Shown here piece by piece: positions 5,588 to 58,598 of a DNA stretch of 64,000 nucleotides. The stretch lies in sequence record MZ234035.1, one strand, 5' to 3'. The notes under the pieces are model-generated. The model made no database searches, was not told where the DNA came from, and saw only the letters and a program-made list of their open reading frames with translations. The translations under genes were made by a program, and so were the position numbers. Source of the stretch: Escherichia phage vB_EcoM-G3F7. Each line of letters starts with the position of its first letter. Position 1 is the stretch's first letter.

Positions 5588-5595
5588 GGAAAATT

Positions 5596-6259: not shown

Positions 6260-6267
6260 ACAAAGAT

Positions 6268-6883: not shown

Positions 6884-6891
6884 GAATTAAT

Positions 6892-7074: not shown

Positions 7075-7085
7075 TTCAAAAAGTT

Positions 7086-7115
7086 GTTTACTTTCCTTTC
7101 TAACGATGATATGAT
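7086..7115 (+). promoter_or_regulatory. T4-type early promoter upstream of modB
   Basis: GTTTAC 7086-7091, 18-nt spacer, TATGAT at 7110-7115. Confidence 0.4.
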
Positions 7116-7141
7116 AGCTTCTGAAGTATACGGAGGCTATC

Positions 7142-7765: not shown

Positions 7766-8364
7766 AATACTCAGTAATGCAACTAAAAGATTTTAAAATA
7801 AAATCAATGGATGCATCGGTGCGTGCTTCTATTCGTGAAGAATTACTTTCTGAAGGGTTTAATTTATCTGAAATTGAACTTTTAATTCATTGTATTACTA
7901 ATAAGCCAGATGACCATACTTGGTTAAATGAAATAATCAAATCTCGTTTGGTTCCAAACGATAAACCTCTTTGGAGAGGTGTTCCAGCTGAGACTAAACA
8001 AGTATTAAATCAAGGAATTGATATTATTACATTTGATAAAGTCGTATCAGCTTCATATGATAAAAATATAGCTCTACATTTTGCTTCCGGTTTAGAGTAT
8101 AACACACAAGTTATTTTTGAATTCAAAGCTCCTATGGTATTCAATTTCCAGGAGTATGCTATAAAAGCTCTGCGCTGTAAAGAATACAATCCAAACTTTA
8201 AGTTTCCGGATAGCCATCGTTATCGTAATATGGAATTAGTTTCAGATGAACAAGAAGTAATGATACCAGCTGGAAGTGTATTTAGAATTGCAGATAGATA
8301 TGAGTATAAAAAGTATTCAACATACACTATCTATACTCTTGATTTTGAAGGATTTAATCTATAA
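7762..8364 (+). CDS. modA: ADP-ribosyltransferase ModA
   Basis: 200 aa; WRG, SAS, EQEVMIP motifs; size and synteny as in T4. Confidence 0.7.
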   Translation: MKYSVMQLKDFKIKSMDASVRASIREELLSEGFNLSEIELLIHCITNKPDDHTWLNEIIKSRLVPNDKPLWRGVPAETKQVLNQGIDIITFDKVVSASYDKNIALHFASGLEYNTQVIFEFKAPMVFNFQEYAIKALRCKEYNPNFKFPDSHRYRNMELVSDEQEVMIPAGSVFRIADRYEYKKYSTYTIYTLDFEGFNL

Positions 8365-8420
8365 TGGAAGGACTTAGATTCATTATACCATGAAATTTTT
8401 GAAGCATTTTTCATAAAATT

Positions 8421-8450
8421 GTTTACAAGCCAAGGTAAAAATGTTATAGT
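8421..8450 (+). promoter_or_regulatory. T4-type early promoter upstream of srd
   Basis: GTTTAC 8421-8426, spacer, TATAGT 8445-8450. Confidence 0.45.
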
Positions 8451-8485
8451 ATAGTAGTCAATCGTCCGTAAGATGTGAGAAAAAT

Positions 8486-9232
8486 ATGAAACTGTCTAAT
8501 AATCAAATTCGTAAAATTAAACGTCGTTTAGAGCACACTCAGGCATCTGCAAAAAGACGTTCTAAAGATTTTAACTTAGACTTCAATTACATTAAGAATA
8601 TTTTAGATCAAAAAGTTTGTGCCTATTCAGGAGAACCTTTTGATAATCGTATTGAAGGAGAGAAATTATCATTAGAACGTTTTGATAATAACATTGGATA
8701 CATTAAAGGGAATGTTATTGCAGTAAAGAAAAAGTATAATACATTTCGTTCTGATTATACTTTAGAAGAGTTGATTGAAAAACGGGATTTATTTGCTTTG
8801 CGAATTGGTCGTTCATCTGCGAAAAAAGTTCATAAACTAAATTTAGATGAAAAGAAATGGGCTAAAATCAAAAAGACTTATAATCAAATTAAAGCTATAC
8901 AGAAAAAGCGTGAAAATCGAATTGAACACATTTCTCAGCTTTCTAAATCAAAACAGACCTCTGACATTAAGCTAAGAATTATAGCACTTAAAGCTCGTAT
9001 TGATGGTTCTCGCATAGCAGAAGGCGCTGAAGTTGTTAAACTGAACGTTCTTCTTAAAGGCTCGGATTGGAAAATTGTGAAAAAGTTGTCAGAAGCAGAA
9101 ATGCAATATGATGTGTGTGATAAAATTATTCAAGGTGTAGAGCGGTATCAAAACTTGTCTTTTATTGATAAACTTAAACTGAAAAGAGGATACCCGCTAA
9201 ATTGTTCAATTTTTAAACTTATCCGAGGATAA
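8486..9232 (+). CDS. srd: Srd-like protein (sigma decoy), assigned by size and synteny
   Basis: 248 aa between modA and dda as in T4; no motif independently recognised. Confidence 0.55.
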   Translation: MKLSNNQIRKIKRRLEHTQASAKRRSKDFNLDFNYIKNILDQKVCAYSGEPFDNRIEGEKLSLERFDNNIGYIKGNVIAVKKKYNTFRSDYTLEELIEKRDLFALRIGRSSAKKVHKLNLDEKKWAKIKKTYNQIKAIQKKRENRIEHISQLSKSKQTSDIKLRIIALKARIDGSRIAEGAEVVKLNVLLKGSDWKIVKKLSEAEMQYDVCDKIIQGVERYQNLSFIDKLKLKRGYPLNCSIFKLIRG

Positions 9233-9233
9233 T

Positions 9234-9545
9234 ATGGTTTATGTATATGCGATAGTTTACCGAGACAAAGACGGATTTACGGCGCCAGTTCCACTTGATG
9301 AACATCGTCCTGCTGTGTTTTTTGAAAGAGAGATTGCTGATAGAGTTTTTACTACTCTCAAAGACCAATATAAACTAGCTTTAGGTATGGGAATTCCAAG
9401 ACTAGTTGAGACTCCACGCAAGTTTTGGTTTAATAAAATAGAAGTTAAACATGTTAAGCCTGATGTAGATACACAAAGATTATATCAACGAATTCTAGAT
9501 ACTGGGCGTATTGTTAGTATTCCAATTGCAGGGACTTTCCGATGA
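9234..9545 (+). CDS. Hypothetical protein (dda.1 position)
   Basis: 103 aa, ATG start, immediately upstream of dda. Confidence 0.5.
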   Translation: MVYVYAIVYRDKDGFTAPVPLDEHRPAVFFEREIADRVFTTLKDQYKLALGMGIPRLVETPRKFWFNKIEVKHVKPDVDTQRLYQRILDTGRIVSIPIAGTFR

Positions 9546-28665: not shown

Positions 28666-29322
28666 TTATTTAGCCCTTCCTAATATTCTGGCCGCCTGAG
28701 CACATATTGATTCAAGGCGGTCATTACTTATATGATCATTTCTATACCAGTACATGGTTATTGTTCCAGCATAGATATTATCCAAATTAAAATATGGACA
28801 ACTGTACATGTAGTTTATTTCGGGAGTAGGCTTTTTAGTTGGTAAAAAAGCAAATTTTGAGTCGGAATAATAATGACGTCCATTTAAATGAACTGTATAT
28901 TCATCCATAGTTTTATCAACAGGATATCCTCCAAGTGATTTTTCACTTATTGTTGAAGGTAATTTTCCTTCATATGCTATAATATCAACAAAATAGTTTA
29001 AGTTTTTAGGGCGGAAAGAATACACCGCACTAAAGTCTGCCTCAGATGATATATGAACTATCTGGAGTTGTTCCAGGGCGACAGATTCAAAGCGTGCATT
29101 TCTTTCCTTTTCAATAATTTCACTGTATGTTTCATACTTTGATTGCTTATAGTACTCAAAGAAACTATCTCCCCTATACCAAACAATCGCCATCATAAAT
29201 AAAAGAATTACGACAGCTACCCGGGAAGCAAGAACTTTCCCGGTAGCGTTATCTTTGAACAAGCGATCTAGAACACCAAACAGAATACCAGAGGGCGAAA
29301 ATGATATTCTAGGTGCTGCCAT
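28666..29322 (-). CDS. t: Holin T
   Basis: 218 aa with N-terminal TMD and large periplasmic domain; matches T4 T as recalled; AGGAGGG SD. Confidence 0.9.
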   Translation of the reverse strand: MAAPRISFSPSGILFGVLDRLFKDNATGKVLASRVAVVILLFMMAIVWYRGDSFFEYYKQSKYETYSEIIEKERNARFESVALEQLQIVHISSEADFSAVYSFRPKNLNYFVDIIAYEGKLPSTISEKSLGGYPVDKTMDEYTVHLNGRHYYSDSKFAFLPTKKPTPEINYMYSCPYFNLDNIYAGTITMYWYRNDHISNDRLESICAQAARILGRAK

Positions 29323-29355
29323 AGACCCTCCTTTTAAGGGTATTTATTCACATTA

Positions 29356-29552
29356 TACTCTTGGACCATATATTGCTCCAACATTTTGCCATGTTGGAGC
29401 GGACCCTATGACAGCATAACCAGCAGCGCCGCCATTATATTCAGATCCTTGACCGCGAATATTGCATCTACCTCCCGCGGAACCTACTTCACCACCGTTT
29501 CCACCATTATAGATACCATTCACGGATCCTGAGCCAGGTGCAGAAATAGAAT
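29356..29552 (-). other. 38: gp38 C-terminal coding segment lying in a different frame from the main gp38 ORF
   Basis: Minus-strand frame offset by one nt encodes ...[63 protein letters not shown] with stop at 29353-29355. Confidence 0.55.
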
Positions 29553-30107
29553 AGATCCTCCTGGCGCACCAAAAGGACGACCGCCACCACCACCAAAGGT
29601 CAATCTCATTCGTGAAAAAGGAGAATAATATCCGCCGCCGCCACCGCCGCCACCGCCTGCAATAGCTCCGCCATTATTAATTCTTAGTCTCCCACCAATA
29701 TCGTTTTGAATACAATGACCTCCAGCTGAGCCAGGACTATTGCTACCGCCATTACCTCCACGACCATACATCGTTACGCCATGTATATTTAACTGAACAT
29801 ATTCATTTGGTGTATCTCCGTACATGAAGAATAAAGGAACATCTTTAGAATAAGAAACGATATCACCAACAATATTGAATACAATAGGTGCACCGCCAGC
29901 TTCAAAGCATCTATCACGGAACCACTGACCATTAAAATTGTGGTTTGCTCCTACAGTATGAATAATTTCTCGTGAGCGACCTGCAAATTGACTCATCCAG
30001 CAAGGAACACCCAATCTTAATTGACCAGCCGCTTGACTCATCCAGCGCTGTCCTGTTTCATTTGCGGCTGAACTTCCAATCCAACCAGGAACACCAACTA
30101 CTGCCAT
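29520..30107 (-). CDS. 38: Tail-fibre adhesin gp38, T2-type with glycine-rich motifs; ORF ends prematurely at an apparent frameshift
   Basis: 195-codon [16 protein letters not shown]...[35 protein letters not shown] then out-of-frame tail; not the T4-type gp38 chaperone. Confidence 0.7.
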
Positions 30108-30120
30108 AATTTATACTCCA

Positions 30121-30139
30121 AAGGGGGCATTTCCCCCTT
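30121..30139 (-). other. Perfect 7-bp stem-loop between genes 37 and 38
   Basis: AAGGGGG-CATTT-CCCCCTT between gp37 stop and gp38 SD; no U-tract, so more likely an RNA structure than a terminator. Confidence 0.35.
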
Positions 30140-30143
30140 GTTG

Positions 30144-33092
30144 TTAGAATTTAAAATATTTACTAATTTTGCGAGCAATTTTAGTAAAGAGAGGCGTTTT
30201 CAATTCTTTAATTTCTTCACTCATTTCCTGAATAGCCTTAATTAAAAGAGCATTCACAGCAGAGTTAGAAATTGTCAGAACATCAGATCCATCAACTTCA
30301 ACTTTAGATACAGCTTCCGGTAATTCCTTTTCAAGGTCCTGAGCAATAATACCAACTTCACGTTTAATAACACTACGGTCTTTAATAGACTTAACTTTAT
30401 CGTAAATATAAACTTTCAGTCGGCAAACTTTTTCGACTGCTCCATATTCTAATTCTTCTTTATTAATCTTGAGACGGGAGTCAGAACGAATATACACATC
30501 GCTAAAGCTACCATTTCCTGGTGTATAAAAGAATCCATCATGATGGAATTCAAACACAGCTTGTGGGTGTCCAGCATCAGGAGAAGCCTCCGTGGATCCG
30601 ACACGAATGATTGCTTGCCCCCACTGTGATGGAATACGACGCATACCAAAGTCAACAGCGGTGCTATATCCTTGATTGGTTATAACGCTTCTTGCTTTAA
30701 GAATAGGATAATAACTATCTTGACCAACATAACCATGATCAACGAATAATGGAGCTTCTACTCGCCATTGGTTGCCCCAATCACCCGGTTGTCTAGCAAT
30801 CCATCCAGAACCGTTAATGTGTACACGGTCACGGTTAACGTTAACCATTGCGGTATTTTGCGGGTTTAACGCAATCTCACCATTGTTTGTGATATGTACT
30901 GCCGCCTGAGAAGCATAGCTATAAAATGCTAGCGAATTATCAGCACCACCCTTGCCAATATACCAGTTACCAGTCCCGTCTATGTCACCGCGAATATGCA
31001 AAGAATTACTAGCAGTTGTTGATAATACAATAGAATCATTAGGTGCATTGATTGTTAACCGACCTGTCATCGTATCACCGCCTTTACCTAGGCGAGTATT
31101 CAAGGCAGCATCTAAATTGGTTGCATCGTTGTATTTCTTCCAGATTGAACCAGCAATGTTACCATCAGTGTTCAAGAATGCTGCGCCAGCATAAACTCGG
31201 CTTTGTGACATGAATCGGCCAGACGGCAAGAAACGCCATATAGCTAATTCAGTGGCTGTAGTTCCAGTAGCGGATAAATCACCCTGAGCAACGATACGAT
31301 ATTCTGAACTAGCAATATCCATACCAGAAGCCATAGTAATATTTGTTACAGTGTTTTTCTGTTTAACAATTGGCGCAAACTGGTTTTTATTTGAATCGTC
31401 AATAGCCTGATATAATGGCGCAATGGTAGTATTCTGATTTGCGTAAGTATTAGAACCAGAACCGCTAGCAGGGGCTTGAATATATGCTCCTGGAGCAAGT
31501 GAAATTTTCTGATTAGCACCAAGATTAACAGCAGCAGTGATATTCAGCAATCCCCTAAAGTTTTGTTGAGCAGTCCAAGTGTGTGATCCGTCTTCAAGAA
31601 CAACACGACGACAAGTATTAGTCCTACTTCCTGGATTACCAGCGATACGAACAACGAAATAACGATAGTTCGCCTGAGATACAGTACCGCGCCACACTTG
31701 AACAGTTCGACCCGTTCCGGTATGTTCGCTAGGACCGACAGAAAACATAACCAGGTTTCCATCAATCGTGCCCCAATCCATATTTGCTGGCATATTCTTT
31801 ATTTTGTTCAAAGGAACACTAAACATACTACCAGGGACAAAATCAAAGGTTTGCCAATCTAACTCCGCTAATTGAGCTTTAATACCACCCATACCCAAAG
31901 TAATTGGCAGAGAATAAGATGTATATACTTCGTTCCATGCACCCCACGCACCACCAGTATATGCACGCTCAAAAATACGATCGCGAGTAGTTGCACCCGT
32001 TCCTGCGGTAGTGAAACGTTGGAAAATAGCACCGCCAGAAGCACGCTGTTTAACTTCCAGCAAACCAACAATAACAGTCGGCAAACCTTCACCTGTAGGA
32101 CAGTTAATAACGGCATCAGTGCCTAAAATATTATATAACCCGGGAGTTTTAAAATCATTCAGATCTCCATCATAGAAAGTCGCTGGTGTGCCATGACCAA
32201 CCTGCTTCCATTCCTCCCACTTAGGTGCACTAGCATCCCATGCAGCAGCGAGACAACGAGTATAAACCATACCCATGCGGGTAGTATAACGCTGAGTTCT
32301 CGTGTATAAACCACCTTCAAATATTTCTAAAAATCCTTGTGCGGCTGATCCTTCTTCTGGATAATGGCGATCAAATGATGCGATTGCGCTTGAACTGTTT
32401 CGCCATAAGCCACAATGTTCTAATTTTCCCAAGCTATCAAGGTCAATCGTTTGTGAAAGTGGACGAGTTGACGCTTGAACATTACGCCACACACCCCATG
32501 GACCATCGACGCCATTCCATTTAGCAGATAAGGAACGAATATAGACGTTACCAGATCTTACAGTATAACGCTGAGTGCCAGCAAATTGGCCGGCCACAAA
32601 CACTTCTAGTACACCTACGGCATTTTCTTCTGGGAATTTATTTGCTGGTTGCGCATTTGTTGAAGTAGATTTCGACCAAACACCAAGATATTCTTCAATG
32701 GGCCCATACGTATCTAAATTAGCATCAGTAGGTAATTCGCCATTATTTTTTATAAATGTTGTGCTATTGACATTTATGTCAGATGGAGTTAAGGTAATGT
32801 CCTTTGACCCATCAAAAGATATACCATTAATTTTCCTAGGTGTTTGCAATTTAGTAGCTGTGCTAGAATTTCCAATTAAAGTTCCAGTTATATTTTCTGT
32901 AACCTCTAAAGACCCATTTATAGTTCCTCCATATTTTAAACCTAATTCTATAACACTACCTGAGTCATCTTTTGTGAAAATTGTTTTATCTTTTAAGTTT
33001 ATAGCCAATTCACCTTCGGCTAATACTGAAGCAGCAGGACGTTGACCTGCAGTTTTGCTTCTTTTAAATTGTATTTGTTTTAAAGTAGCCAT
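30144..33092 (-). CDS. 37: Long tail fibre distal subunit gp37 (T2-type)
   Basis: 982 aa; N-terminus [13 protein letters not shown] conserved with T4 gp37, remainder divergent from T4 as I recall it. Confidence 0.88.
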
Positions 33093-33100
33093 AAGTCCTC

Positions 33101-33751
33101 TTAATAATAGCCGAAATCTTGAACAGAATCCTTAATTACGATTTGGTCAAATCGTGGAACGTGTGAAGGTTGAGATGCAGGATTCTGTGAAAAAAGGTTT
33201 GGCGCAGTTAAATTTCCTGTCATAGTGTCTCCAGAGCGTAATACCCTAGAGTTTGCATTTGCTGTAACAGTATTTATTGCTCCATCAACATAATCTTTGC
33301 GAGTAACATCAGATGCTGCGGAAGGAGTAGATGTAACAGTTACCGATGGAGCCGTTACAGCCCTGGTAAATGTTGTCAAACCTTCTGGCGTAATAGTAAT
33401 TTGTCCAGTAGTGATTTCACTACCTGCAGGTCTAAAACTAATACCACCGGAAGAGCCGCCAACTACAAGAGTATTACCAGTGCCGCCACCAGAACGAATT
33501 CGGATAGGGGTTTCATTATTACTTAATTGAAGATAACTATTTACCCCGTAATTAATAGTAATTGGACCGGCGTAAGTACCACCATTAGCTTTAGAAACGA
33601 AATCGTTATCAGCTGCCTGCGGTTTATTATATTCTGAATATATTTTAAATGATTTGTAGAGTACATCGTCACCGGCTGAATTCAATGGAAAATTTCCTTG
33701 ATGCCAAATGACAGATCCACCCACAGTTGAACCTACTTTTAAATCAGCCAT
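33101..33751 (-). CDS. 36: Long tail fibre hinge protein gp36
   Basis: 216 aa; N- and C-termini match T4 gp36 as recalled, central part divergent. Confidence 0.88.
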
Positions 33752-33774
33752 TATATGCCCCTTTATTTTAATAT

Positions 33775-33782
33775 TATTTATA
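33775..33782 (-). promoter_or_regulatory. T4 late promoter TATAAATA (minus strand) upstream of gene 36
   Basis: Plus-strand TATTTATA is the reverse complement of TATAAATA, ~25 nt upstream of gene 36 ATG. Confidence 0.55.
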
Positions 33783-33790
33783 AAGAAAAA

Positions 33791-33808
33791 GGGAACCCGA
33801 AGGCTCCC
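33791..33808 (-). terminator. Stem-loop terminator after gene 35 (minus strand)
   Basis: Minus strand GGGAGCC-UUCG-GGUUCCC followed by U-rich tract. Confidence 0.5.
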
Positions 33809-33813
33809 TCAGT

Positions 33814-34929
33814 TTAAACTTCTCTAAATTCCTGTCCAAACACTTTGCCAGTTTTAGAAGAGGCTTGTGTAGGAAGTACCATTATATCTGGAGGTGAAGC
33901 CGATTCACAGACATAATTAACGCGAATACCGTTGACGCCAAATTCGGCAGGTTTTGAAATGCCGCCATTTCTTGATACTTCAGAAAAACTTAAATTTCTC
34001 ATGCCGCCTTGACCTGCTTGAGCAGTTCTTTGTGCATATATCGTAAATCCTACGGCGTTTTCTGGAACAACTACATAGTCTTCTTTTAATTCCCAAGACC
34101 CAGCTTGCCCAGTAAACTCAGCTTGGGTCGAGGAAATATATCCATTTGATGCATCATAAAAACGAATGGATATGTTTGTAGTTCCAAGATCAAGTAAATC
34201 AGCATCAGCATATAACTGTGCTTTAAGATAAAGAACATCACCGGGAATTAAATTATAGTCAGAAAGTTTACTTATAGCAGCTGAAGTTGGCAATCGCGCA
34301 ATTTCGTTATTAGTTCCACCAACTGCTGACATGAATTGCTCTACACTTTCATAAGTTCTTTTTGGAAATCCTGTCGCTCCGACGTCTTCTAAACTATCAA
34401 ATACAACATCTAAAATAGTTTGATAATCATCTGTGCTTTTTCTATTACTTAGTTTAACATGCTCTAATGCAATAGCTCTTTTAGAAGAAGTATAAAAAGC
34501 AGCATATGATACGTCAAATCTTGACAATACTGAATCTGATGGAAAAACTGAAGTTCCTGCTCCCCTTAACCAAGATACCACTTCAGGAGGAAAATTAACC
34601 TTTCCGCTAGTTAATATAGCAACAAGTCTATTGTTTGACAAAGAATTCATGAAACTGACAAAAGCGGCAGATGTTGTATTGTTTGAAGCAGAAAAAGCAT
34701 ATGACTTGCTATCAACTAATGCTCCCGTAGAAGGGTCAAAAACTCTTAAATGAAGACCTGCACTAAATGTTTGATTTCCAACGGGATTATCCTGAAATTT
34801 AACATATGGCCCCGCAGTAGAAAGCGGGCAAGAACCCGCTATGCTTATTTTGTATCTTACTGAATTACTTTCCGATAAAAATGGCGTTTGGACGTATCCT
34901 TGTCCAAACTCTGCCATAAATTTTTCCAT
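33814..34929 (-). CDS. 35: Long tail fibre proximal connector gp35
   Basis: 371 aa MEKFMAEFGQGYVQTPFLSESNSVRYKISIAGSCPLSTAGP...; near-identical to T4 gp35 as recalled. Confidence 0.9.
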   Translation of the reverse strand: MEKFMAEFGQGYVQTPFLSESNSVRYKISIAGSCPLSTAGPYVKFQDNPVGNQTFSAGLHLRVFDPSTGALVDSKSYAFSASNNTTSAAFVSFMNSLSNNRLVAILTSGKVNFPPEVVSWLRGAGTSVFPSDSVLSRFDVSYAAFYTSSKRAIALEHVKLSNRKSTDDYQTILDVVFDSLEDVGATGFPKRTYESVEQFMSAVGGTNNEIARLPTSAAISKLSDYNLIPGDVLYLKAQLYADADLLDLGTTNISIRFYDASNGYISSTQAEFTGQAGSWELKEDYVVVPENAVGFTIYAQRTAQAGQGGMRNLSFSEVSRNGGISKPAEFGVNGIRVNYVCESASPPDIMVLPTQASSKTGKVFGQEFREV

Positions 34930-34937
34930 AATACCTC

Positions 34938-37900
34938 TTATTCAACCCATTCAAATTTAACAGTTTTATTCACTGGGTCAGGAATAATGCGAACATTACC
35001 AATTCGTAAGAAATCACGAATAGTAAGATTACCTATTATTCCATTATCAGATGGGATTGCTCCTATATCCGAAGGTTGAGGAGGGTTACCTCCATCAAAT
35101 ACCTGAACAAAACTTGACCAAGAATTTTTAGTTTTCTGCCATGTACGCGTCCAGCGAGTGGTACGTGCTTCTGGAGTCGTTGGATAAGTAATCCAATCTT
35201 GGTAAAGCGAATCAAGTGTGTTACCAAACTGAGTCAATGTACCAGGAGATTTAACTTCTTCGCCACGTTCTAAGTATGGAAGTCCAGTCACTTCATTAGT
35301 TTTTTCAACCATTTTAAAATAACCTGGGAACTGATTATAAGTGGCTGAATCGTTAATATCAATTGACCAGAATCCTACAGTATCAGATGTTGGAGCGCGG
35401 GTGTATAAATCAGATGTTTTAGTGCCCTGAGAACGAATTCTCGAGTTAACAGTTAAACCACCTGAATTTATAGTAGCACCTTTGGCAATGATTAAGCTTT
35501 CACCAATCGTTACTTGGCCAGATGCATTATTAATAGCTAAAGGACGTAATCCATTAAATCCACCAGTCTGATCACCCGATGCAGTAAGCATAAAATTCGT
35601 TACTGATCCATCATTGCGAACAATGAAACCATAATTTCCGTTAATAGCACGGAAAGCATTTGCGCTTCGAGAAATAATTTCACCAGTTGCAGTGACTGAA
35701 TTACCAAATGTTGCTACACCATTTGCATTCAATGTTCCTGAAGCATTAACATTTATCGGTGTTACTGTACCGTTGATATTAAATGTTATATTTCCAGCTT
35801 TATTACGCTGAGAATAAAAATGACTAGACGTTTCATCACTAACTTCAAATACGGTAGAACGTGTTGTGTCTGATTCCCCGCTAAATTGATTTCCCCACAC
35901 TCTGACTGTCATCGTTTGAGCCGGGTTTGTTCCAGTTTGAGGTCCTTTCTCAAAAATCAGACGAGTTGCCGTTCCAGTATTAGAAATAGTTAATGTACTA
36001 TTTGCTGAAACTGATCCACCGAATGTAGCAGTACTAGATGATACAAGAGGGGCACCCAGATTCGTTTGTTGGGTTAAGGTTAGTGAACCATTAACTGTTT
36101 GTGCAATGTCCCTACGAATGAACTGGAGCGAATCTAGACCATCTAATAAATTACTATCTACAGCTTTTGCTTTTAATGGCAAATAATTTGCTAATACGCG
36201 ATTTAATTCATATGGTGATACTGCATAACCATTTTTCTCATATGATTCTAATGGCTGTGTTGAACCTACCGTATCATTACCAACAAACGTTAATGAACCA
36301 GAAGAAGTTTTAACAAACCCTCTTATCAGAGTAGTTGCTGCCCAAGTTGGTTCACTCTGCACAATCCATTTTAAATTTTTTGGAGATACAGCAGTATTTG
36401 CTGACGTTCCAGTCACAGTTTCAGACTGAGTTGCAACTTTAATAACACCTTCTTGCGATTCGGTAGATTTAGTACCTAAAAGCTTTTTAGGAGTTATTAA
36501 AACATTATCTAATGTTCCTGCAGCAGCTTCAACTTGTGTAGCTACACGAAGTGTACCACGCTGTGTCTCATTTGCTTCAAGAATATTAAGGGTATAATGG
36601 TCCCAGAGAGTTCCTGATTCAACTAATCCAGATAGAGCAACAACAGAAGTACGATCAGTACTATTAAATCTGGTTTTAATTTTTAATGGTGTAGAGATAC
36701 GAGTATCGTCGACGCCTGCGTCGAATTCAACTTGCGTAGCAATTTCAGCTATACCACTTAAACTTTCAGTTGCTCTACGGTCATTTAAAGTTTTAGGAGT
36801 GACTGCGCGAGTATAATCAGTTCCTGTATTAACTTCGCTTTGCGTAGCAATTTCAATTAAACCAATTCTTCCATCAGTTGATGTCTTTTTATGTAACGTT
36901 TCTGGTGTTACAACCGCATTTGCCCATCCTTCTTGGCTTTGTCCAGCAATTACTTCACTTTCAACTGCTAAAATTACTGCGCCTTGTTGCGTTGGAGTAG
37001 CTTTATACTGATCCAAAGCTTTAGGTGAAACAACTAAATTATTAGTGTTTTTATTATAAACATTCGTACCATTTAATTCACGACTAGAAGCTGGAGTAGC
37101 TCCTGCGGTAGATACAAAAGTTACAATACCAGATAATGATTCAGAACCTTGACGAGCTTGAAGCTTTTTAGGAGTGATGATTGTAGTATCATCAGTACCT
37201 GTATTAGTTTCCTGCTGCGTAGCAATTTCAGCGACACCTCTACGAGTTTCTGTAGCAGTTCTTTCATTCAGCTTTTTAGGAGTGATGATAAGGTCATCTG
37301 CAAAAGAGAATGTGGTGTTCTGATTTACTTGAGCAGTAGTTGCTATTCTTGCAATACCTCTGCGAGTTTCAGTAGCAGTACGATTAGCTAACGTTTCTGG
37401 AGTAATTGCCAATTCTTTTTGCGGAGAATTTTCTAAATCAGCATTTGCTTGAGCTTGTGTAGCTAAAGCAATTACGCCTAATCTTGCTCTAGTAGAAGCA
37501 TTTAAAGAGTCTACTCTTTCTACAGTTGGAACGTTTTGCTGTACAACCCAGTATTTTCCATCAGAATCTTCTATATAAGCAAGTTGTAAAACTGGAACAT
37601 AATTAGTTTCACCGTTAAAAACTAATTCTTGAACTGTTACCCATTCAGCTTCAGGCGGATATTCTGAACGTTTTGGGAATTGCAGCAATTGAACTGAAGA
37701 AGCAATTTTATCTTCACCAGCAGCTTTGATTTTAACTGTTTGTCCTTTTCTCATGTAATTCATGGAAATTTTAACAGTATCACCAACAGAAATATCAGTC
37801 GGAAGCTGAAGTTCAATTGTTTGGGTTGTTCCATTATTCGCGCCAAATACCATGACTTCTTCATTTGGACGAATATTTGAATTAGTTGTTATAATGCGTA

Positions 37901-38807
37901 AACGTGCTTTACTATCCCCGTCAAACAATCTCCACAATTTCTCATTATCGTCAAACATCAAGAAACCGTCAATCGATGTACGGCCTTCAATGGAATGAGT
38001 TCCAACTTCTTGTACTGAAGTCGTTTCATCGTATGTAGTAACAATTGTATGATAAAGTGGATTCAGTTTATCTAAATCAACGAAATTAATAATATCGCCA
38101 TGATTAGCAAATCTCGGAAGTTTAACATTAATTGGTGCAGCAGAAGTAAATCTACGTACGATAAAATCATTAGATTGTGCTTGATACGCAGTCGATGGAG
38201 TAACAATCGCAGCTTCTCTGCTATAATCAGCAACATACATTTGCCACAAACGATTATTAAAAATGAATATCATCTGTGACTTTGGATGAGTCATTAAAAC
38301 TGAACGTACTTGTTCACCTCTAAAATTGACAATACTCTGATTTGAAGAATTTATTTTAACCTGATTTATGCCAGGTTTTCCACCGATATCTTGAATTATT
38401 ACGGTTTCTCCATCAAGCGGAGAAGGTGGTAAAGTAAACTCAATGTCATTGCCAACTGATGTATCTACTGAAATTGCTTCTCCGGATTTTAATTGATATG
38501 GTCCAGATGATACAGTTGTATATACAGCATCAGTACGTAATGCTTTCCAACGAATTCTATTAAAATTTCCAGCAGGTTTTGGAATATTATCCGTTGCTGC
38601 CCAAAAACGATTATTATAAATGATTACAAAATCTTTTAAATATCCACGAGTTGGATCATATTGCTGAACTGTGTTTTCTTGAATTAAGTAATCAACGTTA
38701 ACACCGTCAGTTCCTACGGTACGATCAGCTAAAGCTACGTTGATTATTTTATCGCCACCTGCGTCCAGACCATCTTCTGCTCTGAACTTTCTTTTAATCT
38801 CGGCCAT
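34938..38807 (-). CDS. 34: Long tail fibre proximal subunit gp34
   Basis: 1289 aa, same length as T4 gp34; repeated TPKKL/ATQ motifs. Confidence 0.93.
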   Translation of the reverse strand: MAEIKRKFRAEDGLDAGGDKIINVALADRTVGTDGVNVDYLIQENTVQQYDPTRGYLKDFVIIYNNRFWAATDNIPKPAGNFNRIRWKALRTDAVYTTVSSGPYQLKSGEAISVDTSVGNDIEFTLPPSPLDGETVIIQDIGGKPGINQVKINSSNQSIVNFRGEQVRSVLMTHPKSQMIFIFNNRLWQMYVADYSREAAIVTPSTAYQAQSNDFIVRRFTSAAPINVKLPRFANHGDIINFVDLDKLNPLYHTIVTTYDETTSVQEVGTHSIEGRTSIDGFLMFDDNEKLWRLFDGDSKARLRIITTNSNIRPNEEVMVFGANNGTTQTIELQLPTDISVGDTVKISMNYMRKGQTVKIKAAGEDKIASSVQLLQFPKRSEYPPEAEWVTVQELVFNGETNYVPVLQLAYIEDSDGKYWVVQQNVPTVERVDSLNASTRARLGVIALATQAQANADLENSPQKELAITPETLANRTATETRRGIARIATTAQVNQNTTFSFADDLIITPKKLNERTATETRRGVAEIATQQETNTGTDDTTIITPKKLQARQGSESLSGIVTFVSTAGATPASSRELNGTNVYNKNTNNLVVSPKALDQYKATPTQQGAVILAVESEVIAGQSQEGWANAVVTPETLHKKTSTDGRIGLIEIATQSEVNTGTDYTRAVTPKTLNDRRATESLSGIAEIATQVEFDAGVDDTRISTPLKIKTRFNSTDRTSVVALSGLVESGTLWDHYTLNILEANETQRGTLRVATQVEAAAGTLDNVLITPKKLLGTKSTESQEGVIKVATQSETVTGTSANTAVSPKNLKWIVQSEPTWAATTLIRGFVKTSSGSLTFVGNDTVGSTQPLESYEKNGYAVSPYELNRVLANYLPLKAKAVDSNLLDGLDSLQFIRRDIAQTVNGSLTLTQQTNLGAPLVSSSTATFGGSVSANSTLTISNTGTATRLIFEKGPQTGTNPAQTMTVRVWGNQFSGESDTTRSTVFEVSDETSSHFYSQRNKAGNITFNINGTVTPINVNASGTLNANGVATFGNSVTATGEIISRSANAFRAINGNYGFIVRNDGSVTNFMLTASGDQTGGFNGLRPLAINNASGQVTIGESLIIAKGATINSGGLTVNSRIRSQGTKTSDLYTRAPTSDTVGFWSIDINDSATYNQFPGYFKMVEKTNEVTGLPYLERGEEVKSPGTLTQFGNTLDSLYQDWITYPTTPEARTTRWTRTWQKTKNSWSSFVQVFDGGNPPQPSDIGAIPSDNGIIGNLTIRDFLRIGNVRIIPDPVNKTVKFEWVE

Positions 38808-38841
38808 TCTCCCGGGCTCCTATTGTGTTTTCAATAATAAG

Positions 38842-38849
38842 TATTTATA
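38842..38849 (-). promoter_or_regulatory. T4 late promoter TATAAATA (minus strand) for gene 34
   Basis: Plus-strand TATTTATA ~35 nt upstream of gene 34 ATG. Confidence 0.55.
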
Positions 38850-38852
38850 CCT

Positions 38853-38882
38853 GTTTACTTTAAGATTTAGATAGTATATAAT
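38853..38882 (+). promoter_or_regulatory. T4-type early promoter for rnh, divergent from the gene 34 late promoter
   Basis: GTTTAC 38853-38858, 18-nt spacer, TATAAT 38877-38882. Confidence 0.45.
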
Positions 38883-38911
38883 AGAAATCTCACTAATTGA
38901 ACGAGGTTCAT

Positions 38912-39829
38912 ATGGATTTAGAAATGATGCTGGATGAAGATTACAAAGAAGGAATTTGCTTTATTGACTTTAGTCAAATTGCTCTTTCAACTGCTCTGGT
39001 AAACTTCCCAGATAAAGAAAAAATTAATTTATCGATGGTTCGTCATTTGATATTGAACTCAATTAAGTTTAATGTCAAAAAAGCAAAAACGCTTGGATAC
39101 ACTAAAATTGTGCTGTGTATTGATAACGCGAAATCTGGATACTGGCGTCGTGATTTTGCTTACTATTACAAGAAAAACCGTGGAAAAGCACGAGAAGAAT
39201 CTACTTGGGACTGGGAAGGTTATTTTGAATCCAGTCATAAAGTTATAGATGAATTGAAAGCTTATATGCCATACATTGTTATGGATATTGATAAGTATGA
39301 AGCAGATGACCACATTGCTGTTCTTGTTAAAAAGTTCTCTTTAGAAGGACATAAGATTTTAATCATTTCATCGGACGGTGACTTTACACAGCTTCACAAA
39401 TATCCAAATGTTAAGCAATGGTCACCGATGCATAAGAAATGGGTTAAAATTAAAAGCGGTTCTGCTGAAATTGACTGTATGACTAAAATCCTTAAAGGCG
39501 ACAAAAAGGATAACGTTGCTTCAGTTAAAGTACGATCTGACTTTTGGTTTACCAGAGTTGAAGGTGAACGAACCCCTTCAATGAAAACTTCAATCGTTGA
39601 AGCTATTGCTAATGACCGTGAGCAAGCTAAGGTGCTTCTCACAGAATCTGAATATAATCGTTATAAAGAAAATTTAGTTCTAATTGATTTTGATTATATT
39701 CCTGATAATATTGCTTCAAACATTGTGAATTACTATAATTCATATAAATTACCACCGCGTGGCAAAATTTATTCATATTTTGTAAAAGCGGGTCTTTCTA
39801 AATTAACTAATAGCATTAATGAATTTTGA
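38912..39829 (+). CDS. rnh: RNase H (5'-3' exonuclease, FEN-1 family)
   Basis: Track ORF 38897..39829 starts with TTG; from ATG 38912 the 305-aa product MDLEMMLDEDYKEGIC... matches T4 RNase H as recalled. Confidence 0.9.
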   Translation: MDLEMMLDEDYKEGICFIDFSQIALSTALVNFPDKEKINLSMVRHLILNSIKFNVKKAKTLGYTKIVLCIDNAKSGYWRRDFAYYYKKNRGKAREESTWDWEGYFESSHKVIDELKAYMPYIVMDIDKYEADDHIAVLVKKFSLEGHKILIISSDGDFTQLHKYPNVKQWSPMHKKWVKIKSGSAEIDCMTKILKGDKKDNVASVKVRSDFWFTRVEGERTPSMKTSIVEAIANDREQAKVLLTESEYNRYKENLVLIDFDYIPDNIASNIVNYYNSYKLPPRGKIYSYFVKAGLSKLTNSINEF

Positions 39830-39837
39830 GGTGAATA

Positions 39838-40107
39838 ATGGCTAAAAAAGAAATGGTTGAATTTGATGAAGCTATCCACGGCGAAGACTTGGCTAAATTT
39901 ATTAAAGAAGCATCTGATCATAAACTGAAAATTTCTGGTTATAATGAATTGATTAAAGATATTCGAATTCGTGCCAAAGATGAACTTGGCGTTGATGGTA
40001 AGATGTTTAATCGTCTATTAGCTTTGTATCATAAAGATAATCGTGATGTGTTTGAAGCTGAAACTGAAGAGGTAGTTGAACTTTATGACACAGTTTTCTC
40101 TAAATGA
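39838..40107 (+). CDS. dsbA: DsbA, dsDNA-binding late-transcription enhancer
   Basis: 89 aa, size and position between rnh and gene 33 as in T4. Confidence 0.7.
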   Translation: MAKKEMVEFDEAIHGEDLAKFIKEASDHKLKISGYNELIKDIRIRAKDELGVDGKMFNRLLALYHKDNRDVFEAETEEVVELYDTVFSK

Positions 40108-40423
40108 TATTCGCCCGGTCGATGAGACCGGTCTTTCAGAAAAAGAACTTTCAATCAAGAAAGAAAAGGATGAAATAGCAAAGCTTCTTGATCGTCAAGA
40201 AAATGGATTTATTATTGAAAAAATGGTAGAAGAGTTTGGAATGAGTTATCTTGAAGCTACAACAGCATTCTTGGAAGAAAATTCTATTCCTGAAACTCAA
40301 TTTGCTAAATTTATTCCTTCTGGTATAATTGAAAAAATTCAGTCAGAAGCTATTGACGAAAATCTTTTACGTCCTTCTGTTGTTCGTTGTGAAAAAACTA
40401 ATACATTAGATTTTCTACTATGA
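40085..40423 (+). CDS. 33: Late transcription co-activator gp33
   Basis: Track ORF 40076..40423 starts TTG; from ATG 40085 the 112-aa product MTQFSLNDIRPVDETG... matches T4 gp33 as recalled. Confidence 0.85.
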   Translation: MTQFSLNDIRPVDETGLSEKELSIKKEKDEIAKLLDRQENGFIIEKMVEEFGMSYLEATTAFLEENSIPETQFAKFIPSGIIEKIQSEAIDENLLRPSVVRCEKTNTLDFLL

Positions 40424-41073
40424 TTAAACTCCGCATGCCTGCTGGTGGTGAAAGATACATTGATGGTAAATCAGTTTATAAATTATACTTAATGATAAAA
40501 CAGCATATGAATGGAAAGTATGATGTAATTAAGTATAATTGGTGCATGCGGGTGTCTGATGCCGCTTATCAAAAGCGAAGGGATAAGTATTTTTTCCAGA
40601 AGTTATCAGAAAAATATAAATTAAAGGAACTTGCTTTAATTTTTATAAGTAATTTGGTTGCTAACCAAGATGCTTGGATTGGTGACATCTCTGACGCTGA
40701 TGCACTTGTGTTTTATCGTGAATATATCGGACGCTTAAAACAAATTAAATTTAAGTTTGAAGAAGATATTCGCAACATTTATTATTTTAGTAAAAAAGTT
40801 GAAGTTTCTGCTTTTAAAGAAATCTTTGAGTATAATCCAAAGGTTCAATCAAGTTATATTTTTAAACTTCTGCAATCGAACATAATTTCGTTTGAGACGT
40901 TTATCTTGCTTGATTCGTTTTTAAATATAATTGATAAACACGATGAACAGACTGATAATTTAGTCTGGAATAATTATTCTATAAAGTTAAAGGCTTATAG
41001 AAAAATTTTAAATATTGATTCACAGAAAGCTAAAAATGTTTTCATTGAAACTGTGAAATCTTGCAAGTATTGA
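40420..41073 (+). CDS. 59: Helicase loader gp59
   Basis: 217 aa MIKLRMPAGGERYIDGKSVYKLYLMIKQHMNGKYD...; matches T4 gp59 as recalled. Confidence 0.9.
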   Translation: MIKLRMPAGGERYIDGKSVYKLYLMIKQHMNGKYDVIKYNWCMRVSDAAYQKRRDKYFFQKLSEKYKLKELALIFISNLVANQDAWIGDISDADALVFYREYIGRLKQIKFKFEEDIRNIYYFSKKVEVSAFKEIFEYNPKVQSSYIFKLLQSNIISFETFILLDSFLNIIDKHDEQTDNLVWNNYSIKLKAYRKILNIDSQKAKNVFIETVKSCKY

Positions 41074-41074
41074 T

Positions 41075-41707
41075 ATGAATATAGTATATTGGTTTACATT
41101 TGAAGACCGTGTCAAAAATAAGACTCCGCCATACTACTATATCGGTAGTAAATTAAATTGCTCATTTGAGAACGGAATAATATATGACTCTTCCGGAAAG
41201 GAATACTGGAGCTCATGTAAACAAAAAAGATTTTTGAATGCGCTAATGCTTCAAAAACCGAGCGTTAAAATAATTCAAATTGATGATGACTTGGATGTTA
41301 TTGAAGCAGAACGAAAATACCAACTTGAAGTAAATGCCAGAGATAATCCAGACTATTTTAATCTGGTATATGCTGGTGGTGGATTTGGTGTGAGTGGTGA
41401 AACTCATCCAGCCAAAGACTCGGAAGTTAGAGAGCATATGAGATTGGCTAATTATATGAACCGTGACGATTTTAGACCTTGGAAAACATCACGAGCTAAT
41501 ATAGAGTCTTGGAAATTATCTCATATTGCTTACGAGAATTATGTGTTATTATTATCCTCTAATCTGTACGGTAAAACTCCTGGATGGCGAAGAGTTAAAG
41601 GTAATATAAATATAACTGATACAACTGCTAAATCGATGGTAAAGTATTTCAACTCAGGTTGGATACCTCTCGAAGACCCAGAGTATTGCGAATTATGCCA
41701 GCTATGA
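41075..41707 (+). mobile_element. Free-standing GIY-YIG homing endonuclease (SegG-like position between 59 and 32)
   Basis: 210 aa; GIY-YIG-like N-terminus IVYWFTF...PYYYIGSK and downstream E/N region (YQLEVNARDNPDYFNLVYAGGGFG). Confidence 0.55.
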
Positions 41708-41761: not shown

Positions 41762-42667
41762 ATGTTTAAACGTAAATCTACTGCTGAACTTGCTGCACAA
41801 ATGGCTAAACTGAATGGCAATAAAGGTTTTTCTTCTGAAGATAAAGGCGAGTGGAAACTGAAACTCGATAATGCGGGTAACGGTCAAGCAGTAATTCGTT
41901 TTCTTCCGTCTAAAAATGATGAACAAGCACCATTCGCAATTCTTGTAAATCACGGTTTCAAGAAAAATGGTAAATGGTATATTGAAACATGTTCATCTAC
42001 CCATGGTGATTACGATTCTTGCCCAGTATGTCAGTACATCAGTAAAAATGATCTGTACAACACTGACAATAAAGAGTACAGTCTTGTTAAACGTAAAACT
42101 TCTTACTGGGCTAATATTCTTGTAGTAAAAGACCCAGCTGCTCCAGAAAACGAAGGTAAAGTATTTAAATACCGTTTCGGTAAGAAAATCTGGGATAAAA
42201 TTAATGCAATGATTGCAGTTGATGTTGAAATGGGTGAAACTCCGGTTGATGTAACTTGTCCGTGGGAAGGTGCTAACTTTGTACTGAAAGTTAAACAGGT
42301 TTCTGGATTTAGTAACTACGATGAATCTAAATTCCTGAATCAATCTGCGATTCCAAACATTGACGATGAATCTTTCCAGAAAGAACTGTTCGAACAAATG
42401 GTTGACCTTTCTGAAATGACTTCTAAAGATAAATTCAAATCGTTTGAAGAACTGAGCACTAAGTTCAGTCAAGTTATGGGAACTGCTGCTATGGGTGGTG
42501 CCGCAGCAACTGCCGCTAAGAAAGCTGATAAAGTTGCTGATGATTTGGATGCATTCAATGTTGATGACTTCAATGCAAAAACTGAAGATGATTTTATGAG
42601 CTCAAGCTCTGGCAGTTCATCTAGTGTTGATGACACGGACCTGGATGACCTTTTGAATGACCTTTAA
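41762..42667 (+). CDS. 32: Single-stranded DNA-binding protein gp32
   Basis: 301 aa [49 protein letters not shown]...; matches T4 gp32 as recalled. Confidence 0.95.
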
Positions 42668-45084: not shown

Positions 45085-45945
45085 ATGAAACAATACCAAG
45101 ATTTAATTAAAGACATTTTTGAAAATGGCTATGAAACCGATGACCGAACAGGCACAGGAACAATTGCTTTGTTCGGTACTAAATTACGTTGGGATTTAAC
45201 TAAAGGTTTTCCTGCGGTAACAACTAAGAAGCATGCATGGAATGCATGCATTGCTGAGCTTCTATGGTTTATTTCCGGTTCTACCAATGTTAATGATTTA
45301 CGTCTTCGCACACATGGTAGTCTTATTCAAGGTAAAACTATTTGGGACGATAACTATGAAAACCAGGCTAAAGACCTAGGATATCATAGTGGTGAACTTG
45401 GTCCTATATACGGTAAACAATGGCGTGATTTCGGCGGCGTGGATCAATTAGTTGAAACTATTGATCGTATTAAAAAATTACCAACTGATCGACGTCAAAT
45501 CGTTTCAGCATGGAATCCAGCTGAAATCAATCAAATGGCATTACCACCCTGTCATATGTTCTATCAGTTTAATGTGCGTAATGGTTATTTGGATTTGCAG
45601 TGGTATCAACGATCAGTAGATGTTTTCTTGGGCTTGCCATTCAACATTGCCTCGTACGCTGCCTTGACGCATATTGTGGCTAAGATGTGTAATCTTATCC
45701 CAGGAGATTTGATATTTTCCGGTGGTAATACTCACATCTATATGAATCATACTGAGCAATGTAAAGAAATTTTACGTCGTGAGCCTAAAGAACTGTGTGA
45801 ACTTAAAATTGATTGGCCTATAGAGTTTGGAAATTGTGACACCGAAACGCAGCTTTACTGGTTAACTGAATACATGAAACCGAAAGATTTTATCCTTGAA
45901 AATTATGAATCGCATCCAGCAATTAAAGGGAAAATGGCAATATGA
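45085..45945 (+). CDS. td: Thymidylate synthase Td, uninterrupted (no group I intron)
   Basis: 286 aa continuous ORF with TS active-site region PPCH; matches spliced T4 Td as recalled. Confidence 0.93.
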
Positions 45946-48791: not shown

Positions 48792-49961
48792 ATGAGCACA
48801 GTTTTTAATACAAATCCAGTTGATGTTTTAAAAGAACCTATGTTCTTCGGTTCAGGTCTTGGTATTGCGCGTTATGATATTCAACGCCATAAAGTTTTTG
48901 AAGATTTGACTGAAAAGCAATTATCATTTTTCTGGCGTCCTGAAGAAGTAAACTTGATGATGGATGCTGCACAATTTAATAAACTTCCTCAGTATCAACA
49001 GAATATTTTTACTAATAACCTGAAGTATCAATCACTTTTGGATAGCATTCAGGGTCGCGCGCCATCTGCTGTACTTATGTCATTAATTTCAGACCCAAGC
49101 CTTGATACATGGGTTGCTACGTGGACTTTTAGTGAAACTATTCACAGCCGTTCATATACACATATCATGCGAAATCTTTATACTGATCCATCGAAGGTGT
49201 TTGATGAGATTGTATTAGATGAAGCTATTATGAAACGTGCTGAGTCCATTGGGCGATATTACGATGATGTCTTGGTTAAAACCCGTGAATGGGAAAACGC
49301 TAAAGAAGAATACGAAGGAATTTTGTCTGAAGGTTGGCGCAAAGATGAACTTGGTAAAGTCGTTGAATACGCCAAACGAGAGCTAATGAAATCTCTTTAC
49401 CTCTGTTTGCACGTTATTAATGCCTTAGAAGCTATTCGTTTTTATGTATCTTTCGCATGTACCTTTAACTTCCACAAGAATATGGAAATCATGGAAGGTA
49501 ATGCCAAGATTATGAAGTTCATTGCACGTGATGAACAGCTTCACCTTAAAGGCACCCAATATATTATTCGTCAGCTTCAATCCGGTACTGATGGTGATGA
49601 ATGGGTTAAAATTGCTCAAGAGTGTGAACAAGAAGCAGTTGATATTTTCATGGAAGTTAACCGCCAAGAAAAAGATTGGGCAGTTCATTTATTTAAAGAT
49701 GGCGATGTTCCTGGATTAAATACAAATAGCATGTGGAGCTTTATTGATTACTTAACTGTATCTCGTATGAAACAGTGCGGTCTTCCATGCCCAATTACCG
49801 ATGCTCCGGTTAAACATCCATATCCTTGGATTCGTGAATATCTTAATTCTGATAATGTTCAATCCGCGCCACAAGAAGTAGAACTGTCATCTTACCTTGT
49901 TGCACAGATTGATAATGATGTTGATGATAAAGTTATGATGAGTTTTAAAAAATACTTTTAA
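48792..49961 (+). CDS. nrdB: Ribonucleotide reductase small subunit NrdB, uninterrupted (no intron)
   Basis: 389 aa continuous ORF; T4 NrdB-like. Confidence 0.93.
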   Translation: MSTVFNTNPVDVLKEPMFFGSGLGIARYDIQRHKVFEDLTEKQLSFFWRPEEVNLMMDAAQFNKLPQYQQNIFTNNLKYQSLLDSIQGRAPSAVLMSLISDPSLDTWVATWTFSETIHSRSYTHIMRNLYTDPSKVFDEIVLDEAIMKRAESIGRYYDDVLVKTREWENAKEEYEGILSEGWRKDELGKVVEYAKRELMKSLYLCLHVINALEAIRFYVSFACTFNFHKNMEIMEGNAKIMKFIARDEQLHLKGTQYIIRQLQSGTDGDEWVKIAQECEQEAVDIFMEVNRQEKDWAVHLFKDGDVPGLNTNSMWSFIDYLTVSRMKQCGLPCPITDAPVKHPYPWIREYLNSDNVQSAPQEVELSSYLVAQIDNDVDDKVMMSFKKYF

Positions 49962-58545: not shown

Positions 58546-58549
58546 GTTG

Positions 58550-58574: not shown

Positions 58575-58598
58575 ATTTTCCAAAGATTGCATAAAGTT

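Follow-up and report, generated by a model that had tools for sequence, protein, structure and literature searches.

On the minus strand of the 64-kb window (the whole stretch of DNA analysed here), positions 28666-38807 hold the Tequatrovirus genes 34-35-36-37-38-t (Table 1), gene 38 following gene 37 directly and preceding the holin gene t. The ORF sizes given for gp34 and gp37 in an earlier, sequence-only reading of this DNA (1289 and 982 aa, respectively) proved correct when the ORFs were recovered on the minus strand; the span to which that reading assigned a mosaic long tail fibre, 30144-33751, covers only genes 37 and 36, with genes 34, 35 and 38 lying outside it. No finding speaks against this assignment of the locus. 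An Rfam scan of the whole window found no family above its threshold, and a PDB sequence search with gp37 as the query returned no match at E <= 0.001.

Table 1. Genes and sequence features of the long-tail-fibre locus (window coordinates)
Feature	Position	Strand	Basis or remark
TATAAATA, T4 late-promoter consensus, 35 nt upstream of gene 34 ATG	38842..38849	-	window-wide count as expected by chance; position only suggestive
Gene 34, proximal half-fibre subunit, 1289 aa	34938..38807	-	ORF; Pfam Gp34_trimer and Gp34_2nd matches
Gene 35, proximal hinge connector, 371 aa	33814..34929	-	ORF
TATAAATA, 24 nt upstream of gene 36 ATG	33775..33782	-	present in T4, T2 and T6; GC hairpin and T-run before it
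Gene 36, distal hinge connector, 216 aa	33101..33751	-	ORF; Pfam Phage_T4_gp36 restricted to residues 140-190
Conserved island: gene 36 3' end, 8-nt intergenic region and first ~45 codons of gene 37	32960..33310	-	sliding DNA identity
Gene 37, distal half-fibre subunit, 982 aa, T6-like	30144..33092	-	Pfam gp37_trimer at residues 693-743
gp37 residues ~500-680, sole gp37 segment unlike T6	31053..31595	-	protein identity
gp37 C-terminal intramolecular chaperone domain (Peptidase_S74), residues 870-928	30309..30485	-	Pfam PF13884, E = 6.3e-10
Gene 38 truncated ORF, 195 aa	29520..30107	-	Pfam Gp38_N; GP38 profile positions 1-142 of 218 only
28-nt deletion junction in gene 38	29549..29550	-	missing GATATGCAATCAGGCGCGACTGGCGGTA, nt 559-586 of the 783-nt gene
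Gene 38 out-of-frame remnant, 56 codons, beginning at a GTG that shares bases with the premature TGA	29353..29523	-	rest of HVS3, GRM4, HVS4, GRM5 and conserved C-terminus
Gene t, holin, 218 aa	28666..29322	-	Pfam Phage_holin_T; BLASTP 214/218 vs T4 (98%)

From what is known of this family, trimers of gp34 would form the proximal half-fibre, gp35 and gp36 the hinge and trimers of gp37 the distal half-fibre. In such a fibre, gp37 is expected to fold by means of its own C-terminal S74 chaperone domain, which it would then shed, and one molecule of gp38 would cap the gp37 tip via its N-terminal attachment domain, presenting four hypervariable loops on a polyglycine sandwich of five glycine-rich motifs. 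In the T4 fibre, the receptor is bound by the tip of gp37 itself, and T4 gp38 is an assembly chaperone.

The operon shares with T4 gp34 (91% identity), gp35 (96%), the ends of gp36, the first ~45 residues of gp37 and the holin t (98%), whereas the centre of gp36 and the remainder of gp37 are unrelated or very distant and gp38 is another protein. The sequence-only reading, which called gp34 and gp35 near-identical to T4, overstated the likeness, above all for gp34, the identity of which dips to 75-88% at residues 61-240 and to 73-80% at residues 901-1080. Its description of gp36 as a protein with T4-like ends and a divergent centre is borne out by identities of 95-100% at residues 1-60 and ~145-216 and of 15-35% at residues 61-140, and at the DNA level similarity to T4 within gene 36 falls at ~33575 and resumes at ~33310 (sliding DNA identity). 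The same is true of gp37, which is indeed T4-like at its N-terminus only (92% at residues 1-40, then 0-35%), the T4-like stretch ending at about residue 40-45, and of the gene 38 product, which has no similarity to T4 gp38 (E = 1.6) and matches instead the Pfam Gp38_N and GP38 adhesin family. Neither gp37, 24% identical overall, nor gp38 is therefore collinear with its T4 counterpart. In sum, identity breakpoints against T4 are found at ~33575, ~33310 and ~32960, T4 similarity is back at gene t, and the conserved island (83-100% identity with T4, T2 and T6) is flanked by two divergent blocks.

By amino acid identity, all five fibre proteins are closest to T6, not T2. Identity with the long tail fibre of T6, which carries a Tsx-binding gp38 adhesin and has the same architecture, including the S74 chaperone tail on gp37, amounts to 99% for gp34, 98% for gp35, 98% for gp36, 81% for gp37 and 92% for gp38, and the centre of gene 36 (about 33310-33575) is 90-100% identical to T6, unlike T4 and T2. 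The differences are that gene 38 is intact in T6 and that gp37 residues ~500-680, which form the one mosaic patch in the comparison with this closest classical phage, are only 12-22% identical to T6 (25-32% to T4 and T2). With T2, the fibre shares the gp38 family, the junction island between genes 36 and 37 and the principle of a C-terminal chaperone on gp37, since the S74 domain aligns with the C-termini of T2 and T6 and is absent from T4 gp37. T2 identities are 90% for gp34, 95% for gp35, 67% for gp36 (the centre of which is T4-like in T2, not T6-like), 31% for gp37 (1341 aa in T2, i.e. 359 aa longer than in the window) and 52% for gp38. The label 'T2-type' that had been attached to the adhesin and its module is therefore correct for the family, the T2/T6-type gp38 adhesin being defined by Pfam PF21721 and PF05268, but the actual module is T6-like, as the identities of both gp37 and gp38 indicate.

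Far closer relatives are found among publicly deposited phages. The whole window corresponds to nt 32001-96028 of vB_EcoM-G3F10 (MZ234038.1) with zero mismatches and one 28-nt gap; window positions 9100-58500 aligned to this record show 0 mismatches and this one 28-nt gap, and the two ends of the window match it at 100.0%. G3F10 has the same gene order and the same tail-fibre proteins throughout, but its gene 38 is intact (783 nt, 260 aa). The one paper that a literature search on the G3F10 name brought up concerns its sibling vB_EcoM-CHD94UKE2 (MZ234031.1; Loose et al., 2021, PMC8614997). In WilhelmHis (Bas35 in the BASEL collection, MZ501113.1), the cassette is 99.6% identical, with gp34-gp36 at 100%, gp37 at ~100% and a gp38 that is the same except for one substitution and the deletion; its gene 38 is intact and it differs by a few SNPs. 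More broadly, 117 public phage records match the 10.4-kb cassette at 95% identity or higher, and coverage of the cassette reaches at least 80% in 172 records. The window belongs, by near-identical DNA, to the Tequatrovirus gee4498 lineage that comprises G3F10, WilhelmHis and G4498. As judged from these alignments, the locus is the standard, published long-tail-fibre operon of a T6-like Tequatrovirus, and the cassette is not new.

Long-tail-fibre loci of T-even phages combine conserved proximal genes with exchangeable 36-37-38 modules (Trojet et al., 2011, PMC3157838). The idea of modular exchange of these genes, which the sequence-only reading invoked, is therefore textbook and holds in general, but an exchange event in this particular genome is unsupported, the whole locus being collinear with T6 and more than 100 public phages. 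A recombinant genome, in which T4-like proximal genes would have been joined to an imported T2-type 36-37-38 cassette and the junctions in g36 and g37 would mark a notable exchange, could be argued for from the sharpness of the breakpoints against T4, with similarity returning at gene t, from a gp38 family that differs from T4 gp38 and from the documented recombination at conserved motifs of this locus (PMC3157838). This scenario is nevertheless very unlikely. The comparison with T2 shows the same breakpoints, gp34 and gp35 are both nearer T6 than T4, the distal module is T6-like, not T2-like, and the locus is identical or near-identical in many public phages; moreover, among the best hits, no relative that is more than 99% identical elsewhere carries T4-type g36-g38. 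Since the locus is collinear with T6 and common to many phages, any exchange would be ancient and clade-wide, T4 merely representing another allele. The mosaic look relative to T4 is, on these comparisons, the well-known allelic modularity of the locus and no new chimera.

What is private to the window is a 28-nt deletion in gene 38, between 29549 and 29550 and inside hypervariable segment (HVS) 3, which is the sole difference from G3F10 over 64 kb. The junction reads GGATCTATT followed by CTATTTCTG, the lost sequence being GATATGCAATCAGGCGCGACTGGCGGTA, and it is situated just upstream of a BamHI site, which is the HVS3 marker in Trojet et al. (PMC3157838), and also upstream of a SacII site in glycine-rich motif (GRM) 4. 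In the intact form, the interval between g37 and t is 849 nt. Direct-repeat slippage was considered as the cause of the deletion and rejected, the computed junctional microhomology being 0 bp and both CTATT pentamers being retained. Because a loss of 28 nt shifts the frame, the gene 38 ORF is cut from 260 to 195 aa: the first 186 residues are native (attachment domain, part of the beta-helix, GRM1-GRM3 and the start of HVS3), the next nine (LFLHLAQDP) are read beyond the junction and a TGA follows, leaving GRM4, HVS4, GRM5 and the C-terminus out of frame. A programmed frameshift or bypass was likewise discarded as unsupported, as there is no canonical slippery heptamer between the junction and the TGA. 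Gene 38 had previously been taken to encode a working adhesin and the deletion had been missed; as written, the gene is frameshifted.

The consequences for the protein can be followed along the family profiles. The N-terminal gp37-attachment domain is present (PF21721 Gp38_N, residues 1-42, E = 4.8e-20), whereas the specificity domain, which in a single frame comprises five glycine-rich motifs, four hypervariable segments and the C-terminus, is incomplete and matches only part of the GP38 profile (Table 1), of which gene 38 of G3F10 and WilhelmHis covers 218/218 positions. The intact allele aligns full-length with gp38 of Salmonella phage S16 (PDB 6F45) and with a GFP-gp38 fusion (PDB 9V85), at E = 1e-50 and 1e-75, while the truncated product aligns with residues 5-184 of 249 in S16 gp38 (6F45_D), i.e. 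it covers that protein up to residue ~184 only. A 31-mer spanning the junction had no match in IMG/VR, JGI metagenomes or GTDB genomes, and an 18-mer gave two unrelated chance hits only. In BLAST searches of phage records with gene 38 and with 101 nt round the junction, all the alleles found keep the 28 nt, and an exact look-up of the 195-aa product found nothing on record.

The outer-membrane protein Tsx is the expected target of the gp38 loops in the intact allele, by analogy with WilhelmHis, infection by which needs tsx, a dependence that was complemented (PMC8594841), and in view of the 92% identity to T6 gp38. A product devoid of GRM4, HVS4, GRM5 and the C-terminal strand would be a non-functional adhesin, and virions carrying it would look normal but be unable to adsorb. 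That the encoded 195-aa adhesin is non-functional is a prediction based on experiments in another phage, T6, the gp38 of which is 92% identical. Amber mutations in T6 gene 38 before GRM3 or GRM5 resulted in virions of normal morphology, no adsorption and no plaques, and no mutants deleted for HVS1-3 or GRM2-4 were ever obtained (PMC3157838). The C-terminus of gp38 contributes to the beta-helix domain (PMC12032242).

Taken jointly, a T6-like operon identical to that of G3F10 and a private deletion predicted to break the adhesin gene 38 make up a reading that is very probably right. As the window runs exactly from nt 32001 to nt 96028 of G3F10, the 28 nt were already absent from the genome out of which the window was taken, which makes that genome as such a variant of G3F10. 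Given that the remainder matches a viable phage on deposit and that the deletion has no counterpart in any other sequence searched, the most probable explanation is a defect at the sequence level (an edit, or an error in the consensus or assembly) or a defective variant, rather than a design that works. It is possible, although doubtful, that a G3F10-like phage did lose the 28 nt by spontaneous mutation; it would then be adsorption-defective and would persist only as a minority or complemented form in a lysate, or come from a non-plaque source. The change is clean, single within 64 kb of otherwise perfect identity, unlike homopolymer-type sequencing noise and already present in the source genome, all of which would suit a mutation of this kind; however, the junction lacks microhomology, the usual mark of slippage deletions, the predicted phenotype is lethal to plaque formation (PMC3157838) and no other record has the deletion.

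That the deletion is not only real but tolerated, i.e. fixed in a plaque-forming phage, strains belief. Such a phage would either make a two-piece gp38 that reassembles, translation stopping at the TGA and restarting at the GTG, or adsorb without a complete adhesin. Stop and start codons overlap as GTGA at 29520-29523, an AGGA lies a few bases upstream, and restarted translation would run in the frame native to GRM4-HVS4-GRM5 and the C-terminus, which would be consistent with the former possibility. Even so, roughly half of HVS3 would remain missing or scrambled, and in T6 deletion of HVS3 is inviable and an amber truncation placed as late as GRM5 was enough to abolish adsorption (PMC3157838); nor is there any precedent among 360 gene-38 matches. 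Were the deletion real and the phage viable, this would challenge T6 genetics, in which every GRM and HVS is essential, but this is considered unlikely.

The preferred reading, that of a T6-like operon with a gene 38 predicted to be broken by a sequence-level defect or in a defective variant, leaves little that is new in the fibre itself. The literature already covers the modular exchange of 36-37-38, the adhesin-type gp38 and this exact allele, and experiments have identified Tsx as the receptor of a phage that is near-identical. It does call for caution, since a sequence-based prediction of the host range or receptor of this phage would yield a functional Tsx adhesin, in a gene that is broken as written.

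The long-tail-fibre locus of vB_EcoM-G3F7 is a contiguous set of six ORFs on the minus strand (28666-38807, by ORF finding), and protein-by-protein alignment of gp34 to gp38 with the fetched T4, T6 and T2 proteins, and also with those of WilhelmHis (Bas35, MZ501113.1), showed T6 to be the nearest of the classical T-even phages for every fibre protein, the proximal ones included. A sequence-only reading had instead described T4-like proximal genes joined to a T2-type distal module, giving for the whole fibre set a span (30144-33751) that takes in just genes 37 and 36. Its 'near-identical to T4' was too strong for gp34, whose identity falls to 73-88% in two patches (sliding windows), while gp35 is 96% identical.

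Coordinates (window positions) and features of the locus and neighbouring genes, with protein identity to reference phages
Feature	Position	Strand	Size, domains or sequence	T4	T2	T6	WilhelmHis
gene 34 (gp34)	34938-38807	-	1289 aa; Pfam Gp34_trimer + Gp34_2nd	91%	90%	99%	100%
gene 35 (gp35)	33814-34929	-	371 aa	96%	95%	98%	100%
g35-g36 spacer, with hairpin	33752-33813	-	GGGAGCC-TTCG-GGTTCCC, then T-run, then TATAAATA				
gene 36 (gp36)	33101-33751	-	216 aa; Pfam Phage_T4_gp36	69%	67%	98%	100%
gene 37 (gp37)	30144-33092	-	982 aa; Pfam gp37_trimer	24%	31%	81%	~100%
gp37 C-terminal intramolecular chaperone	residues 870-928	-	Pfam Peptidase_S74				
g37-g38 spacer, with hairpin	30108-30143	-	GGGGG-AAATG-CCCCC-TTT				
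gene 38 (gp38 adhesin)	29520-30107	-	195 aa; Pfam Gp38_N + GP38	unrelated (BLASTP E = 1.6)	52%	92%	96%
g38-t spacer, with hairpin	29323-29352	-	ACCCT-TAAAAGG-AGGGT				
holin t	28666-29322	-	218 aa; Pfam holin T	98%			
gene 59	40420-41073						
homing endonuclease ORF	41075-41707	+	210 aa				
gene 32	41762-42667						
td	45085-45945	+	286 aa				
nrdB	48792-49961	+	389 aa				

Boundaries relative to T4 were placed by sliding protein windows and DNA alignment. Similarity ends at ~33575 (gene 36 codon ~60), resumes at ~33310 (codon ~147) and spans the gene 36/37 junction down to ~32960 (gene 37 codon ~45), in agreement with the T4-like ends and divergent centre ascribed to gp36, and with a gp37 of 982 aa that is T4-like at its N-terminus alone. 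The remainder of gene 37 and gene 38 have no T4 similarity, which is regained at holin t. A T4-type distal module was thus rejected, since in these alignments gp37 and gp38 are not T4-like over their full length. Gene 38 is indeed of adhesin rather than T4 chaperone type, as had been proposed, but it is T2-type in family alone, being T6-like within it. The boundaries relative to T2 are identical to those relative to T4 which, with the closeness to T6 throughout, indicates that the module is T6-type and that the locus is a common clade-wide allele, not a T4/T2 chimera. Modular exchange of genes 36-37-38 therefore holds as a long-established, already known feature of this locus. At the sequence level, the locus is of the adhesin-type (T2/T6) long-tail-fibre class, the same as in published phages. 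By the same alignments, just one patch is mosaic with respect to T6: gp37 residues ~500-680 (31053-31595), which are 12-22% identical to T6 and 25-32% to T4 and T2, are flanked by 85-100% T6-like sequence and are common to WilhelmHis.

Short GC hairpins are present in all three spacers listed, and T4, T2 and T6 all keep the one between genes 35 and 36. Elsewhere in the window, td (thymidylate synthase) and nrdB (ribonucleotide reductase beta subunit), which carry introns in T4, are each one uninterrupted ORF, and Rfam revealed no group I intron or other RNA family across the 64 kb. An ORF annotated in phage vB_EcoM-G3F10 (MZ234038.1) as a homing endonuclease sits between genes 59 and 32, where T4 has SegG.

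The 10.4-kb tail-fibre region matched 748 phage records, 172 with at least 80% coverage and 117 with at least 95% identity, the best (99.6-99.7%) being G3F10, vB_EcoM-CHD94UKE2, Isf-Pm2, WilhelmHis and UTI-E2. The G3F10 accession series is that of Loose et al. 2021, where the sibling CHD94UKE2 is a wastewater Tequatrovirus (PMC8614997). Against window 9100-58500, G3F10 shows 0 mismatches and one 28-nt gap over 49,429 alignment columns, and both ends are 100.0% identical (G3F10 32001-41300 to window 1-9300, and 90328-96028 to 58300-64000). The window is thus G3F10 nt 32001-96028 (64,028 nt) minus 28 nt, and since its ends fall exactly on these two positions, the source genome, a variant of G3F10, was without the 28 nt before windowing.

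The gap lies in gene 38, which is intact in WilhelmHis and G3F10 (783 nt, 260 aa). The window copy is without nt 559-586 (GATATGCAATCAGGCGCGACTGGCGGTA), with the junction between 29550 and 29549 (minus strand), a frameshift overlooked when the gene was read as an encoded adhesin and the reason why gp38 is only 96% identical to WilhelmHis. The product has 186 native residues and nine more (LFLHLAQDP) before a TGA, spans positions 1-142 of 218 of the Pfam GP38 profile and aligns with residues 5-184 of 249 of S16 gp38 (PDB 6F45_D). The deletion is directly upstream of a BamHI site, with a SacII site further downstream; in T6 gene 38 these sites mark hypervariable segment HVS3 and glycine-rich motif GRM4 (Trojet et al., PMC3157838), which puts the break inside HVS3. 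Out of frame, the native sequence carries on at 29353-29523 with the remainder of HVS3, followed by GRM4, HVS4, GRM5 and the conserved C-terminus. Hence, while the intact allele has all the sequence features of the gp38 adhesin family, the window copy lacks a complete specificity domain.

This deletion is private to the window. Every gene 38 match among phage records includes the additional 28 nt, the 31-mer junction has no match in IMG/VR, JGI metagenomes or GTDB genomes, and exact look-up of the 195-aa product returned no record; two 18-mer junction matches in IMG/VR were unrelated, chance hits. It could be an artefact or edit, or a real defective variant. The missing nucleotides lie exactly between two CTATT pentamers, both kept (TCTATT/CTATTTCT), and since computed junctional microhomology is 0 bp, repeat-mediated slippage was rejected as the cause. 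Identical outer pentamers would flank ~0.3% of random 28-nt deletions, a pattern spotted post hoc and predicted by no known deletion mechanism.

In gp38 adhesins, the attachment domain is N-terminal, the beta-helix domain combines N- and C-terminal parts, and five GRMs form a polyglycine sandwich with the HVS loops exposed (PMC12032242). The gp38 of T6 is 92% identical to this allele. T6 mutants with a gene 38 amber codon immediately ahead of GRM3 or GRM5 had morphologically normal virions that neither adsorbed nor formed plaques, and HVS1-3 or GRM2-4 deletions were recovered in 0/220 screened progeny (PMC3157838). By analogy, the premature stop in HVS3 is expected to abolish adsorption. Tsx would be the receptor of a phage with gene 38 intact, since WilhelmHis depends on tsx and this dependence was complemented (PMC8594841). 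The premature TGA overlaps a GTG (GTGA, 29520-29523, minus strand) that opens the native GRM4-HVS4-GRM5-C-terminus frame, with an AGGA a few bases upstream, making it a possible termination-reinitiation site; however, a restart there would leave HVS3 damaged all the same, and between the junction and the TGA there is no evident slippery site for regaining the frame. That a viable phage manages with a split or missing adhesin is highly improbable. Artefact or true variant alike, gene 38 as written should not be expected to provide a working adhesin and, rather than a discovery, the broken gene is a point of caution when annotating the sequence or predicting host range.
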